A stretch of DNA of 64,000 nucleotides, from NCBI GenBank assembly GCA_013343275.1, contig CP046106.1, positions 320,001-384,000 of the forward strand, written 5' to 3'. Shown in pieces: positions 4,218 through 58,065 of the stretch (within the stretch, counting starts at the first letter, position 1; the number at the start of each line of letters is the position of its first letter). The position numbers and the translations under genes were made by a program. The DNA is from Candidatus Nanohaloarchaea archaeon. Lineage in GTDB: Archaea > Nanohalarchaeota > Nanosalinia > Nanosalinales > Nanosalinaceae. The notes beneath the pieces are model-generated. The model had not been told where the DNA came from, searched no databases, and worked only from the letters and a program-made list of their open reading frames with translations.

Positions 4218-4910
4218 ATGTCACGTGTAAAAGAAGACAATGACTTAGTTGTTCCTGGAGACGTCCTATACGACGGAAGCAACCTATATGCGAACCAGGG
4301 CACCTATGAAGAAAACGATAAAATCTATGCAGAAAGCGTTGGCGTTGTACGTTACAGCGACCAGGGTGTCGAAGTCGTCCCTATGTCAGGAAGATACATT
4401 CCTGAAGAAGGCGACGTAGTAATTGGAGAGATCTCTCGAGTAAGTTATTCTCGATGGACCGTTGACCTGAACTCTCCTTACGACGGCACACTCGGTATCA
4501 GCGACGCAACAGAAGAGTACGTTGACCTTGACGAAGACGACCTTACAGACTTCTACGATGTAGGAGATACAGTAGTTGTCAAGATTGACTCCGTAAGCGA
4601 GTCAATGGACGTCGACCTCTCAATGAAAGACCGCAGATGCAAGAAACTGCACGGCGGACGAGTAGTAGAGATCGCACCATCAAAGGTACCTCGTGTAATC
4701 GGAAAAGGAGGTACAATGGTACAGCAGGTTAACGACAAGACCGACTGCAACATAATCGTAGGCCAGAACGGTCAGGTATGGATCAAAGGCGAACATGCCA
4801 ACCTTGCAGCAAGAGCGATCAAGAAAATCGAAAGAGAAGCTCACACACAGGGCCTGACAGACAGAATAGCTGAATGGCTTGATGAACAGCTAGAAGAGGT
4901 GGATCAATAA
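4218..4910 (+). CDS. rrp4: Exosome RNA-binding cap subunit Rrp4
   Basis: LVVPGD, S1 domain, KH motif KVPRVIGKGG, IIVGQNG. Confidence 0.96.
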   Translation: MSRVKEDNDLVVPGDVLYDGSNLYANQGTYEENDKIYAESVGVVRYSDQGVEVVPMSGRYIPEEGDVVIGEISRVSYSRWTVDLNSPYDGTLGISDATEEYVDLDEDDLTDFYDVGDTVVVKIDSVSESMDVDLSMKDRRCKKLHGGRVVEIAPSKVPRVIGKGGTMVQQVNDKTDCNIIVGQNGQVWIKGEHANLAARAIKKIEREAHTQGLTDRIAEWLDEQLEEVDQ

Positions 4911-4960
4911 TGAAAATCGCAGATTTTCGTAGAGATGAAAACAGAGGTGTTTTCGAATAA
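4910..4960 (+). other. 16-codon bridging mini-ORF (MKIADFRRDENRGVFE) containing two hairpins
   Basis: ATG overlaps the rrp4 TAA and its TAA overlaps the rrp41 ATG; hairpins GAAAATC-GCA-GATTTTC and GAAAACA-GAGG-TGTTTTC. Confidence 0.55.
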
Positions 4961-44128: not shown

Positions 44129-44659
44129 ATGGCCAGCGATCAGGATGCAGCAGAGACAGTTATAGAAGCGATGGAAGATGTTGCCGAGGTGTACGGTTTC
44201 AGGAAAAGCTACGCCAGAGTCTACGGCACACTCTATTTCCAGACCGATGCCCAGACCATGGACGAGCTAAGCGATAAGACGGGTTTTGCCAAGTCAACAG
44301 TTTCCGATGCTCTGCAGAAGCTGGAGGAGCTGCATATGGTCTACAGCGAGAAGAGAGAAGGTCATGGGAAGACCAAGTTCTACCAGGCTGAAGAAGACCT
44401 GGAGAAGGCCATGAAGAAGATAATAGATAATCAGGCTACGGACGAGATCCAGATAATGCTCGACGCCCTGGAAGAGGCGAAAGAACAGGCCGATGAAGGA
44501 AGTACGGAAGAGGAGAAGATAGAGAATCTGCAGGATTTCTACCAGAAGTCAAGAAAGATTATCGGGCTTTTCAAGAAAATGCCGAGTGGCAAAGTGCTCT
44601 CACGGATCTCAGAGTCTTTAAAGACCAGCCTGTCAAGAGTCAGCGGAAAAGACTCCTGA
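44129..44659 (+). CDS. GbsR/MarR-family transcriptional regulator
   Basis: AEVYG..KSYARVYG.LYF, TMDEL..KTGFAKSTVS. Confidence 0.9.
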   Translation: MASDQDAAETVIEAMEDVAEVYGFRKSYARVYGTLYFQTDAQTMDELSDKTGFAKSTVSDALQKLEELHMVYSEKREGHGKTKFYQAEEDLEKAMKKIIDNQATDEIQIMLDALEEAKEQADEGSTEEEKIENLQDFYQKSRKIIGLFKKMPSGKVLSRISESLKTSLSRVSGKDS

Positions 44660-45707
44660 ACTGATCAAAAGAAAGTAGAGTAGAAGGCCTATCCATATGA
44701 ACACCTATTTCTCCCTCAAAAATCTTTAAACCTGATCTCTGGATTAATTCGGGCCACGAGTAGGCTTTCTCGAAAATCTTACCTGCCCGGATTTCGTTCA
44801 GAAGTTCCGACCGCCAGGCCTTCTCGTAGTCATCAAGAGTATCAGGATCCTCAACATCTATGGATTCCGCAGCTTTTTCTACTGCTCTCATTCCGTAAAG
44901 TATCCCTCCCCCGGTGAATGGCTTGGTCTGGGCTGCTGCATCACCTACAAGGAATACTCTTTCAGAAGTAACCGTTTGTGCAGGCCCTACAGGTATAGCT
45001 CCCGCACAGATATTCCTCTGCTCTTCCTGATCGATGAAGCCATCTGTTATCTTATTCAGCCATTTCTGAGGGTTCTCACCTTTCGGTACTGCGGCGCCGT
45101 ACTCTACAGAGTCTCCTCTGGGGATTCTCCAGCCGAAAAACTCTGGAACTTCAAGAAAAACATCCACAAAGTCCGAAGGATCGTTCTCATCCGAGAAACA
45201 GAGGATTCCCTGATAGAAATGGTCCGGTTCTGGAAGACCGATCTGATCTCTGACGGTAGATGAGGCACCATCACATCCTGCAACCATAGAGGCCCGGTAT
45301 TCCCCTCTGTCAGTAAGTACCTTAACCCCGTCTTTATTCTCCTCTACTTTTTCAACTGTCTCTCCAAGCCTGTATTCTGCTCCTGCATCCTTAGCCTCCT
45401 CTGCCTTCAGTTTATCTAGCTCCACACGGTCTATAACATAGGAAACTGTCTCATTCTTGTAGAAACTGTATTCTGCATCGGACTCGGTGTGGAAGTTTGC
45501 TCCTGTGATCTCATTCTGGTAAAGCCTGTCACGAGCTTCCTCTGGTACGAAATCCCAGATATCGGGCGAAACATGACCTGAACAGGCAAGAGGCTTACCT
45601 ATCTCATCTGAACGCTCTATTAGAAGTACTTCAAGGCCTTTCTCCTGCATTTTCTGTGCGAGGTGCGATCCTACAGGACCTGCACCTACAATGATTAAGT
45701 CTCTCAA
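44640..45707 (-). CDS. Geranylgeranyl reductase-family flavoprotein
   Basis: VGAGPVG, LACSG, DR..LD, GCDG, VGDAAAQTKPFTGGGI; TTG start. Confidence 0.88.
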   Translation of the reverse strand: MRDLIIVGAGPVGSHLAQKMQEKGLEVLLIERSDEIGKPLACSGHVSPDIWDFVPEEARDRLYQNEITGANFHTESDAEYSFYKNETVSYVIDRVELDKLKAEEAKDAGAEYRLGETVEKVEENKDGVKVLTDRGEYRASMVAGCDGASSTVRDQIGLPEPDHFYQGILCFSDENDPSDFVDVFLEVPEFFGWRIPRGDSVEYGAAVPKGENPQKWLNKITDGFIDQEEQRNICAGAIPVGPAQTVTSERVFLVGDAAAQTKPFTGGGILYGMRAVEKAAESIDVEDPDTLDDYEKAWRSELLNEIRAGKIFEKAYSWPELIQRSGLKIFEGEIGVHMDRPSTLLSFDQFRSLFR

Positions 45708-45760
45708 CCGAAAATCGCCTGGATTTTCTGTGAAATCTTAAAATCAGAGATTTTATTCAT
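45704..45760 (-). other. 18-codon bridging mini-ORF (MNKISDFKISQKIQAIFG) containing two hairpins
   Basis: ATG overlaps the ferredoxin TAA; TGA overlaps the reductase TTG; hairpins TAAAATC-TCT-GATTTTA and GAAAATC-CAGGC-GATTTTC. Confidence 0.55.
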
Positions 45761-46065
45761 TAGTACCAGTCGGGTTCGGAGATTTTGATGTCGCCGTAGA
45801 CTTCTGTCTGGCAGCTCAGACGGAACGGGCCATCCAGTACTTCTTCTCCCTGGAATCTTCGAAGAGTATTTTTCTCGTCCTGCTGTTGTTCGGAGAGGTT
45901 TTCCATTCCTTCTTCGACTTTTACCCGACAGGTTGTGCAGTTGCAGAATCCTCCACATGCGTGCATCCATTCGACCCCTCCGTGAAGAAGTGCCTGTAGT
46001 ATTGACTGGCCGTCCTCTGCCTCTACCTCTTCGTCCCTGTCGGTGAACTCTATTTTGTGTGTCAT
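45760..46065 (-). CDS. fdx: 2Fe-2S ferredoxin (adrenodoxin/ISC type)
   Basis: HACGGFCNCTTC...RLSCQ. Confidence 0.92.
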   Translation of the reverse strand: MTHKIEFTDRDEEVEAEDGQSILQALLHGGVEWMHACGGFCNCTTCRVKVEEGMENLSEQQQDEKNTLRRFQGEEVLDGPFRLSCQTEVYGDIKISEPDWY

Positions 46066-56267: not shown

Positions 56268-56395
56268 AACTACAAGCTTGGAGAAGCAGAAATTAAAAAC
56301 TGCTTGATGGACTCTGGAGGTTAGAAAATCAGATGAGTTTTTTGGCATGAAAGCGATGCAGGGCATGGCTTATGATGATCAAACTTTCAGAAGTT

Positions 56396-56555
56396 TGGAC
56401 TCTGTGGGATTTGAACCCACGGCCTCCTGCTATTTCAGGCCTTTACACTGATCAAGGTTCCTACATAATCCATGCGAAGCATGGTTTGTTGCGTGCCGCA
56501 CTCAGCGTAACGAGGCGTGCGAAGCCGGCGTTCCGCCAAGCTGAACTAAGAGCCC
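56396..56555 (-). tRNA. tRNA-Ala(CGC) with 86-nt intron (56432-56517) at position 37/38
   Basis: GGGCTCT/AGAGTCC acceptor (G3:U70), CCGGC-TT-CGC-A^A-GCAGG (one G:A mismatch), GTGGG-TTCAAAT-CCCAC. Confidence 0.85.
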
Positions 56556-57978: not shown

Positions 57979-57991
57979 GTAGAGAAAGACT

Positions 57992-58065
57992 TGGACTCTG
58001 TGGGATTTGAACCCACGGCCTCTTCCCTGCCAAGGAAGCGTTCCGCCAAGCTGAACTAAGAGCCC
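57992..58065 (-). tRNA. tRNA-Ala(GGC)
   Basis: GGGCTCT/AGAGTCC, CTTCC-TT-GGC-AG-GGAAG, TTCAAAT. Confidence 0.96.

Follow-up and report, generated by a model that had tools for sequence, protein, structure and literature searches.

We analyzed a stretch of 64,000 nucleotides (positions 320,001 to 384,000 of contig CP046106.1, assembly GCA_013343275.1; hereafter the window) from the genome of a Candidatus Nanohaloarchaea archaeon, concentrating on the spacer between two minus-strand genes that encode a 2Fe-2S ferredoxin (fdx) and a flavoprotein of the geranylgeranyl reductase family. This spacer of 52 nt is occupied by a short element, here called a cassette, in which two hairpins are contained within a single small open reading frame (ORF) that leads from the stop codon of fdx to the start codon of the reductase gene and that we refer to as the relay ORF. 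Coordinates are given in the numbering of the window unless marked G000, which denotes the whole genome studied, a single contig of 915,886 bp.

Anatomy of the ferredoxin-reductase spacer

The features of the locus and of a second cassette in the window, copy 1, are collected in Table 1. The relay ATG has its A in common with the stop codon of fdx (TAATG), and the relay TGA falls within the TTG start of the reductase gene (TTGA), which coincides with the position of an ATG or TTG start in 10 orthologues. Hairpin 1 is closed by a T-A pair, whereas the norm of the family described below is G-C (GC in 9 and UA in 2 of the aligned copies). The 3' end of the 16S rRNA reads ...GGATCACCTCC, from which the Shine-Dalgarno (SD) sequence is deduced as GGAGGTGATCC with the core AGGTGAT, and it is this core that the heptamer in hairpin 2 resembles. 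The reductase matches its NCBIfam model with 203.1 bits at a cut-off of 158.8; for the product of fdx, the matches to NCBIfam 2Fe-2S ferredoxin models fall under the equivalog cut-offs. A preliminary description of the locus had reported the 18-codon bridge from TAATG to TTGA, both hairpins in exactly these sequences, the SD-like AGGCGA inside hairpin 2 and plausible partner proteins on either side of this copy and of copy 1, and in all these respects we find the DNA as it was described, the partners being ferredoxin/reductase and Rrp4/Rrp41 according to Pfam.

Table 1. Coordinates of the two cassettes of the window and of the genes flanking the Fdx/reductase copy
Feature	Position	Strand	Evidence or remark
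2Fe-2S ferredoxin gene (fdx, 101 aa), upstream partner	45760..46065	-	ORF; Pfam Fer2, 51.5 bits
fdx stop codon TAA	45762-45760	-	
Relay mini-ORF MNKISDFKISQKIQAIFG, 18 codons and stop	45704..45760	-	Sequence, ORF list, covariance model match
Relay start codon ATG	45760-45758	-	
Hairpin 1, TAAAATC-TCT-GATTTTA	45739..45755	-	7 bp, 3-nt loop
Hairpin 2, GAAAATC-CAGGC-GATTTTC	45710..45728	-	7 bp, 5-nt loop
SD-like AGGCGAT, loop and 3' arm of hairpin 2	45714..45720	-	6/7 bases of AGGTGAT, 6 nt 5' of TTG
Reductase start codon TTG	45707-45705	-	
Relay stop codon TGA	45706-45704	-	
Geranylgeranyl-reductase-family flavoprotein gene (355 aa, TTG start), downstream partner	44640..45707	-	NCBIfam TIGR02032; Pfam FAD_binding_3
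Copy 1, Rrp4/Rrp41 (exosome rrp4-rrp41), MKIADFRRDENRGVFE	4910..4960	+	TAATG at both ends; covariance model match, 64.3 bits
Copy 1, hairpins	4912-4928 and 4937-4954	+	

Statistical weight of one copy and controls for chance

Taken alone, the Fdx/reductase copy is weak evidence, and the argument rests decisively on the family context. The pattern of hairpin 2, with up to two mismatches allowed, turns up one or more times in 34 of 100 shuffled versions of the window, and the fold of the copy (-11 kcal/mol, z = -0.78) is equalled in 47 of 200 shuffles; for copy 1, which is present as described, z is -2.78 and none of 200 shuffles folds as well. In a leave-one-out nhmmer search with a profile of the 10 other copies, the Fdx/reductase copy appears at rank 19 with E = 0.02 genome-wide. 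A covariance model (R1) built from 9 other copies (alignment A2) recovers it at full length with 29.8 bits and E = 1.4e-4 in the window, where it is second only to copy 1 and the next, unrelated match has E = 1.8. We conclude that the copy is a divergent member of a real family.

The frequency of the pattern in ordinary spacers was assessed on 187 co-directional gaps of 35–75 nt in G000. A bridging ORF with any start codon is found in all 13 cassette spacers and in 25 of the 174 others; with an ATG start the numbers are 12 and 7, respectively, and 2 to 5 of these last 7 are themselves additional or decayed copies. Perfect hairpins with a stem of at least 6 bp give a similar picture: among 170 non-cassette spacers, 17 contain one and none contains two or more, whereas 17 cassette spacers contain one in 3 cases, two or more in 13 and none in 1, and shuffled cassette spacers (200 per spacer) yield one in 5.9% and two or more in 0.2%. 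The preliminary description had named two outcomes that would speak against it, i.e., random frame and position of other copies or frequent occurrence of the pattern in AT-rich spacers. Neither was found, the spacer controls giving 7/174 ATG bridges and 0/170 twin hairpins. A crude histogram of gap lengths in G000 and the congener G001 has no bump at 45–60 nt, since promoter-bearing spacers of such size are common.

A family of junction cassettes in one genome

The preliminary description knew of two copies only. The second of them stands, but the family is much larger, comprising at least 16 members in G000 and extending more widely across the phylum. The motif AAAATC-N3-GATTTT occurs 14 times in G000, compared to 0, 0 and 0 occurrences with spacers of 0 to 2 nt and 1, 1, 1, 2 and 3 with spacers of 4 to 8 nt. 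Profile and covariance model together give 12 to 18 full copies, the covariance model alone 12 at E <= 0.001. We count 16 junction cassettes, which fill gaps of ~46–69 nt (81 nt at RpoA''/NusA) and all lie between co-directional partner genes. Two more clear copies, at ~89.2 kb (before atpA) and 144.9 kb of G000, and three possible decayed ones, at 273.5, 693.4 and 717 kb, came to light among the control spacers; the total is at least 16 and probably 18 to 21.

The 16 junctions, with genes called by a crude in-house ORF caller and proteins identified by Pfam (S27e by reading its N-terminus, L14 by position and sequence), fall into three groups: 1) ribosomal proteins, namely S12/S7, L44e/S27e, L23/L2, L22/S3, L14/L24, L5/S14 and S5/L30, 2) transcription and exosome, namely RpoA''/NusA, RpoE'/Spt4, Spt4/S24e and Rrp4/Rrp41, and 3) others, namely Fdx/reductase, Top6B/Top6A, AtpA/AtpB, E1 alpha/E1 beta and aminotransferase/prephenate dehydrogenase. 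Other twin hairpins of G000 adjoin tRNA-Gly and tRNA-Arg, and three larger intergenic regions contain them as well. The genome contains 105 perfect GAAA..TTTC hairpins that include 18 adjacent pairs, none of which (0/18) lies within a bona fide gene; these are short, multi-copy, extragenic palindromes, as are the repetitive extragenic palindromes (REP) of REP/RAYT (REPIN) systems.

Several side observations concern hairpins and repeats elsewhere in the genome. The twin hairpin 3' of tRNA-Gly(tcc) at G000 542336-542479 is flanked by a 12-nt repeat of the acceptor end. Downstream of ftsZ, a 370-nt intergenic region (G000 434,615-434,983, locus L004) holds at least four GAAA..TTTC hairpins, an array that is kept in G001 with compensatory changes and has no Rfam match. 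Two identical 32-nt stretches of the window, 56395-56426 and 57991-58022, about 1.6 kb apart, resemble a tRNA T-arm and 3' end on the opposite strand and are adjoined by a 41-nt repeat (88%).

Design of the cassette and conservation of the bridge

A typical cassette consists, in this order, of a native SD, an ATG, hairpin 1, a linker of 8–10 nt, hairpin 2, a further 3–8 nt and a stop codon at the next start. The native SD is GGTGA-like, with a length of 5 nt or more in 34 of the 43 bridging copies, and the relay ATG lies at the upstream stop or a few nucleotides away. Hairpin 1 has the consensus (G)AAAATC-NNN-GATTTT(C) and hairpin 2 the consensus GAAAACAC-N2-7-GTGTTTTC or a variant of it. The relay stop overlaps or abuts the next start in the forms TAATG, ATGA, GTGA, TTGA or TGAATG, and the relay ORF has 14–20 codons in most cases and 14–48 overall.

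The conservation of the bridge was evaluated on 55 spacers of at least 28 nt, including 13 cassettes of G000 that were chosen rather than sampled. At least one perfect hairpin is present in 45 of the 55, and in 43 of these 45 a single ORF links upstream stop and downstream start, with stop/start distances between -6 and +4 nt at both relay ends; the double overlaps that the preliminary description had suggested looking for are thus the rule. The two non-bridging spacers both belong to G019, one being without a start codon and the other having a stop 10 nt early. Cassettes with three to five hairpins (100–144 nt; G007, G024, G008, G009 and G013) still form one bridging ORF, of 33–48 codons, and L22/S3 copies in which no perfect hairpin survives (G012, G021 and G008) retain the bridge in 3/3 cases. 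The ORF is the conserved part of the cassette; the hairpins can decay. In 37 of the 45 spacers the last hairpin contains an SD-like motif of at least 4 nt, and one of at least 5 nt (38 of 45) is found 5–10 nt from the downstream start.

The copy at RpoA''/NusA occupies a site without a start codon, has brought in its own ATG, lacks the terminal overlap and has an ORF that continues for 26 codons. An ATG is thus part of the element, and the overlap is retained only at sites followed by a gene start. At S12/S7 of another nanohaloarchaeon (L205), a three-hairpin cassette is seen whose ORF seems to continue for at least 80 codons into the downstream gene and may extend S7 N-terminally in frame instead of forming a separate relay ORF.

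Hairpin 2 is always translated as GAA AAC, while two reading registers are in use for hairpin 1 (KIxDF or ENxRFS), and a 1-nt difference in the linker is compensated by a 4-nt difference after the ATG. It is therefore the nucleotide design that is conserved and not the peptide. The similarity of the peptides noted in the preliminary description (MKIADF versus MNKISDF) is real, but as a peptide signal it does not hold up, being a by-product of DNA palindromes. Twin-hairpin cores are unusually open to translation: on average 4.39 of 6 frames are free of stop codons compared to 2.15 in shuffles and 3.41 in random 46-mers of the genome, and at least five open frames are found in 9 of 18 cores compared to 0.8% of shuffles and 15% of random genome 46-mers.

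The arms of hairpin 1 covary (GAAGATC/GATCTTC, GAAATTC/GAATTTC, TAAAATC/GATTTTA), and stems open with GAAAA or TAAAA in every aligned copy. The invariance of hairpin 1 among the aligned seeds is circular, because seed copies were picked by the exact hairpin-1 motif, and model R1 encodes only hairpin 1 as structure because hairpin 2 could not be aligned (MAFFT, RNAalifold). The last hairpins are of 41 distinct kinds among the 45 spacers, yet their stems are perfect. Perfect palindromes can persist through template-switch correction (quasipalindrome mutagenesis) without selection, and covariation alone is therefore no proof of a functional RNA structure.

Gain and loss among relatives

The flanks of the 16 junction cassettes were compared with those in G001, whose genome comprises 1,046,959 bp. 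Fourteen of the 16 cassettes are absent from G001, where a plain arrangement of SD, spacer and start is found instead, and the L22/S3 cassette is common to both. The empty Rrp4/Rrp41 site of G001 equals the filled site minus exactly 50 nt, and a second congener, G002, has the Rrp4/Rrp41 cassette with its 3' overlap changed from TAATG to ATGA. At Fdx/reductase, G001 has a 27-nt remnant, TAATGAAC.AAATCTCTG...ATCCCAGG, which keeps the first 17–18 nt and the loop of hairpin 2 and forms no hairpin; the flanks are 78–82% identical between the two genomes, and both hairpins of G000 are still perfect. The full Fdx/reductase cassette occurs in G000 only, among 11 genomes in which the two genes are adjacent. 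The other spacers measure 2–25 nt including the stop (two of them being TGATG overlaps), except for an unrelated one of 90 nt in G019, and in two further genomes fdx lies ~1.1 kb away from the reductase gene. In G021, the L23/L2 cassette comes after the native ribosome-binding site and ATG of L2, which makes the relay ATG either the native start itself or its replacement.

A survey of 12 junction types around the anchors L2, Rrp41 and S4e (30 loci each; most L2/S19 and L24/S4e pairs left out) yielded 291 junction observations with a bimodal length distribution: 245 of at most 20 nt, 2 of 21–27 nt, 43 of 28–200 nt and 1 longer. Long spacers are found at L22/S3 (10/27), L14/L24 (6/28), L5/S14 (6/30), L23/L2 (4/30), Rrp41/Rrp42 (4/30), S4e/L5 (4/30), L4/L23 (3/30), Rrp4/Rrp41 (2/28) and S14/S8 (2/30). 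The L23/L2 spacer of G024 (L060), 106 nt and nearly all a run of N where relatives have cassettes, was dropped from the counts. Near-identical cassettes occupy different junctions across genera, for example Rrp4/Rrp41 in G000 and Rrp41/Rrp42 in G021.

Distribution in the phylum and beyond

The covariance model search across nanohaloarchaeal genomes that the preliminary description had suggested finds full cassettes (R1, E <= 0.001) in 39 of 70 genomes of the phylum, with more than 200 matches; the search was run with stricter filters, since more than 40 genomes were scanned. Positive genomes amount to 35/49, 0/1, 1/10, 2/8 and 0/1 in families f1 to f5. The hairpin-1 palindrome itself occurs in 49 of the 70 genomes, all of one order, and its reversed control in none (0/70). 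Copy number ranges from 0 to 20 and varies widely among close relatives: 12, 2 and 7 in the congeners G000, G001 and G002, and, within three other genera, 20, 11 and 6 (g7), 14, 8, 8 and 2 (g20) and 9, 6, 3, 2 and 1 (g11).

The element is also found in frame inside genes. In G022, the gene of an HhH-GPD glycosylase (L022, 1192-1974) contains an in-frame twin hairpin of 66 nt, and the corresponding 22 residues are absent from the 81% identical orthologue of G001. A paralogue in G000 (HhH-GPD, endonuclease III-like; ~116,230-116,420 of G000, minus strand) carries a degenerate insert at the equivalent position of the protein; the counterpart in G001 has no insert. A scan of 185,579 species genomes for the exact pattern gave at least 116 stretches with at least 119 matches, and the second hairpin, GAAAAC...GTTTTC, closes in 52 of 119 among the matches listed. 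Among 80 titled loci listed, 33 of 34 twin-hairpin matches are archaeal by the taxa in their titles and include Nanohaloarchaea, Nanosalina, Nanohalobium, Woese-, Pace- and Nanoarchaeota, Methanosarcinales, Methanobacterium, haloarchaea and Heimdallarchaeota; the single-hairpin matches listed are mostly bacterial. In three haloarchaeal records (L222, L234 and L245) the hairpins are in frame within a near-identical tnpB ORF (...DS(R/W)KI(E/K)DFPEVEN..RFRNS...), located by Pfam in L245 just N-terminal of the OrfB_IS605 domain, and a fourth (L235) shows them at the corresponding place of another tnpB. In a Methanobacterium record they are in frame within a DHH/DHHA1 protein. With intron search, ARAGORN recognised a tRNA in one of seven matches from DPANN archaea, a match from Nanoarchaeota, and placed the hairpins in its intron of 47 nt; other searches of DPANN matches for tRNA introns gave 0/5 (ARAGORN) and 0/3 (Rfam). 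As for the junction cassettes, their phased ORF argues that they are not spliced out as bulge-helix-bulge introns.

Two side observations belong here. The segment 4902-6610 of L245 (Haloferax) is an IS200/IS605-type element with TnpA and TnpB by Pfam and the AT-rich twin hairpin in tnpB; such elements occur in several genera of haloarchaea. In L012, L013, L016, L018 and L020 (families f3 and f4), single GAAAATC-N3-GATTTTC hairpins adjoin duplicated tRNA 3' ends, with direct repeats of ~12–33 nt and often an inverted T-arm-like segment.

Interpretation and alternatives

Starting from what the sequences show, namely how the spacer is built, that it belongs to a repeat family, that insertion is polymorphic and that the bridge is conserved, we consider it fairly probable that the Fdx/reductase spacer is a copy of a proliferating twin-hairpin insert whose relay ORF preserves coupling by termination-reinitiation. 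The insert would be a translatable palindromic repeat of ~45–55 nt, poor in stop codons and similar to REP or to Rickettsia palindromic elements (RPE), that is placed exactly at the downstream translation start. The native initiation signal (the overlap of fdx stop and ATG here, native SD and ATG elsewhere) would now open the relay ORF, and hairpin 2 would supply a fresh SD 5–10 nt before the re-created start. At this locus the process may be envisaged in four steps: 1) fdx and the reductase gene are presumably co-transcribed, 2) a ribosome finishing fdx at UAA would restart on the overlapping AUG, 3) it would translate 18 codons and thereby melt both hairpins, and 4) it would stop at UGA within UUGA and restart at UUG, aided by AGGCGAU 6 nt upstream. 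In Haloferax volcanii, according to PMC10666635, a gap of 13–14 nt cuts reinitiation by 40–60%, a gap of 22–23 nt abolishes it, and overlapping gene pairs are enriched for subunits of complexes. Since a gap of 22–23 nt is sufficient to abolish reinitiation, coupling of the pair would be lost across an untranslated insert of 52 nt but not across a phased mini-ORF.

Selection in the host maintains the open bridging frame; the insert as such is most likely selfish or neutral. The preliminary description had proposed either a reusable coupling cassette or a REP-like repeat tolerated only where coupling is preserved. Both proposals hold in substance and the second fits best, given at least 16 junction copies, gain and loss between relatives, a bridge in 43/45 hairpin-bearing spacers and also in decayed copies that have no hairpins, and the loss of the terminal overlap in the one copy (RpoA''/NusA) that abuts no start codon. 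A wider and more tentative reading, which we regard as possible, is that Archaea hold widespread, hitherto undescribed, stop-depleted GAAAAYC...GRTTTTC palindromes that are translatable and reside at start junctions of operons (as self-contained relay mini-ORFs equipped with an SD), in protein loops (in frame) and in a tRNA intron, that have expanded lineage by lineage in Nanohaloarchaeota into core operons of ribosomal proteins, RNA polymerase, exosome, ATP synthase and Topo VI, and whose spread would depend on the hairpins and not on the transposases searched. Depletion of stop codons in most frames would, in this wider reading, let the palindromes colonise the few sites that a gene-dense genome offers.

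Several points weigh against a proliferating insert with a coupling relay. The Fdx/reductase copy is the most divergent one by the leave-one-out E-value and fold z-score given above, and it has an imperfect SD and a TTG as restart codon. Co-transcription, relay translation, reinitiation and the way of spreading are all deduced from sequence. Perfect but wholly differing hairpin-2 stems could reflect selection on structure, i.e., a function for the host. The polarity of gain and loss is based on a majority of empty outgroups and not on a tree, and precise deletion in the relatives instead of insertion stays a formal alternative. A mobilising system has not come into view: Y1_Tnp (PF01797) is absent from G000 and from all 25 genomes of family f1 searched, and among 41 relatives overall it was found in one (G039); DDE_Tnp_1, the other transposase family searched, is likewise absent from G000, where TnpB-like matches are limited to zinc ribbons below threshold. 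These searches (Y1_Tnp, DDE_Tnp_1, TnpB) produced no autonomous insertion sequence with ends matching the cassette, and the one integrase-like ORF of G000 has no link to any copy. Apart from the start codon, no target-site duplication recurs consistently (flank permutation within versus between cassettes, p = 0.86), long flanking direct repeats being found in three copies only (18, ~12 and 12 nt), and clear terminal inverted repeats are lacking, only the 5–6 nt GAAAA/TTTTC of the outer arms being inverted. Transposition of the cassette is unproven.

Two further candidate routes of spreading were rejected. The haloarchaeal insertion sequence that carries a copy has unrelated GC-rich hairpins at its ends. 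The sole reverse transcriptase (RVT_1) of G000 belongs to a diversity-generating retroelement, which speaks against retro-mobilisation and is a further point against the proliferating insert. This retroelement lies outside the window (G000:C1:208397-211987, L161) and comprises RVT_1 (89.8 bits) and a 116-nt pair of template and variable repeats that are 84% identical, with 17 of 18 mismatches at template adenines.

The alternative that survives best, which we nevertheless consider unlikely, is a regulatory device of benefit to the host that tunes the coupling of subunit genes, with hairpin 2 sequestering the downstream SD so that only relay ribosomes would start there. In such a device the 3' arm of hairpin 1 could also pair with the 5' arm of hairpin 2, giving a translational attenuator of the ermC type; ~10 of the 45 spacers could form a middle hairpin (TTTTCG...CGAAAA) of 6 bp or more. 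The position of the SD-like motif in the last hairpin (37/45) is what this explanation expects, and so are stoichiometric partner genes at all host junctions, hairpin-2 stems that are varied yet perfect and in some cases resemble the local ribosome-binding site (Top6B/Top6A, AtpA/AtpB, aminotransferase/prephenate dehydrogenase), and two perfect hairpins in the Fdx/reductase copy despite the divergence of its flanks from G001. However, orthologous junctions lack the cassette in most relatives, and work; copy number swings between congeners; the hairpins of L22/S3 decay while the ORF persists; the same element is found in frame within genes, a setting that involves no coupling; and template-switch correction is able to keep palindromes perfect without selection.

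It is considerably less probable that the cassette is an RNA- or DNA-level signal unrelated to translation, such as a factor-binding palindrome, a hairpin for mRNA processing or stabilisation, or a weak bidirectional terminator or attenuator (stem and T4). The conservation of the hairpin-1 sequence across the phylum (49/70 versus 0/70 for the reversed control) and the copies beside tRNA genes and in larger intergenic regions would fit such a signal, and intercistronic REPs of E. coli have such roles (PMC12306157). But a signal of this kind leaves unexplained the phased stop-to-start ORF of 43/45 spacers, which has come through many independent indels, as well as the decayed copies with an ORF and no hairpin and the depletion of stop codons in most frames. 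Rfam did not yield a family either: the best match at the Fdx/reductase locus is SNORD91 with 18.8 bits versus a gathering score of 51 (E = 9.2), and three other loci gave only a tRNA. A C/D-box small RNA was rejected as well, there being no boxes in register and the would-be guide regions being self-complementary.

That the mini-ORFs are genuine micropeptide genes, with MKIADF...GVFE-type products of their own function, is very improbable. Similar peptides do occur at non-orthologous sites and across genera, for example MKIADFRRDENRGVFE and MKIADFREDENNRGVFE, but the two registers of hairpin 1 produce unrelated peptides, lengths vary from 14 to 48 codons, conservation tracks the DNA palindromes and the peptides of decayed copies are unrelated. 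A chance combination of ORF and hairpins in an AT-rich spacer, for which the weak single-copy statistics (34/100 shuffles, z = -0.78) could be cited, is refuted by the family-level spacer controls, the covariance matches and the cassette remnant that G001 has at this junction, and its probability is negligible.

Comparison with known systems

Among known elements, REP and bacterial interspersed mosaic elements (BIME) of enterobacteria are alike in being short multi-copy palindromes, often located within operons near stop codons and variable in copy number between strains. They differ in being untranslated, without start, SD or stop, and in being mobilised by REP-associated (RAYT) Y1 transposases, whereas the cassette is one phased ORF and no RAYT or Y1 transposase was found for it in the genomes searched. 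REP stems bear a GTAG/CGTC tag, to judge from the title of PMC3733652, and this tetranucleotide is absent from the foot of the stem in the aligned cassettes, which begin with GAAAA or TAAAA. RPE are alike in another way, being selfish palindromes that lie in frame inside genes and stay open when translated, a property shared by the inserts in the HhH-GPD gene of G022, in tnpB of four haloarchaeal records and in the DHH protein of Methanobacterium. RPE measure ~100–150 bp and reside in Rickettsia ORFs, as stated in PMC10969869, while cassettes measure ~45–55 nt, are archaeal and mostly form stand-alone relay mini-ORFs; the likeness is drawn from their descriptions.

The cassette closely resembles the synthetic bicistronic design (BCD), which consists of a first SD, a leader of 17 aa (BCD2), a second SD in the 3' end of the leader and a 1-bp overlap of stop and start (PMC5995908). 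The corresponding parts are all present here, i.e., a short leader of 14–20 codons, an SD near its 3' end in hairpin 2 and a stop that overlaps the next start as TAATG or ATGA. The BCD is engineered, bacterial and without designed hairpins; the cassette is natural, archaeal, repeated and apparently self-spreading. A natural parallel to its ends is provided by overlapping archaeal gene pairs, which overlap by 1 or 4 nt, encode subunits of heteromeric complexes and lose reinitiation at gaps of ~20 nt (PMC10666635, PMC6728339). A close stop and start, as in termination-reinitiation, is found at both ends of the relay (TAATG and TTGA here), but in contrast to direct overlaps the cassette has two junctions in series, joined by a mini-ORF that a repeat encodes.

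A further point of comparison is provided by the leader-peptide attenuators of the ermC/cat type. These consist of a short ORF and four segments that pair 1:2 and 3:4 or else 2:3, with the downstream SD in segment 4. The short ORF and the alternative pairing with an SD in the last segment are alike, but the relay ORF continues across segment 4 as far as the next start, the cassette lies within operons and not in a 5' leader, and we know of no stalling signal or inducer for it.

A review of miniature inverted-repeat transposable elements (MITE) names archaeal MITEs in Sulfolobus, Halobacterium, Haloquadratum, Desulfurococcus and several other archaeal genomes. We found no description of an element such as the cassette in the literature, including the accessible main text of this review and of a survey of REP.

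The consequences, if the interpretation is true, are of several kinds. Introns and inteins excise themselves from RNA or protein; the cassette would represent a third way in which selfish DNA avoids doing harm, namely bypass at the level of translation by its own relay ORF. Protein-coding palindromes are reportedly, to judge from the title of a reference, a peculiarity of Rickettsia, and an archaeal counterpart would generalise them. With more than 200 covariance matches in 39 genomes, the family would also constitute a natural test bed for the strictness of archaeal coupling. The annotation of DPANN genomes would be affected through unannotated mini-ORFs, mis-called starts (TTG inside TTGA) and spurious protein "insertions". 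As a natural counterpart of the engineered BCD, the cassette may furthermore be a portable coupling part for haloarchaeal synthetic biology. What sets it apart from each of the systems compared here is the joining of a palindromic repeat of the REP or RPE kind with probable coupling by termination-reinitiation.

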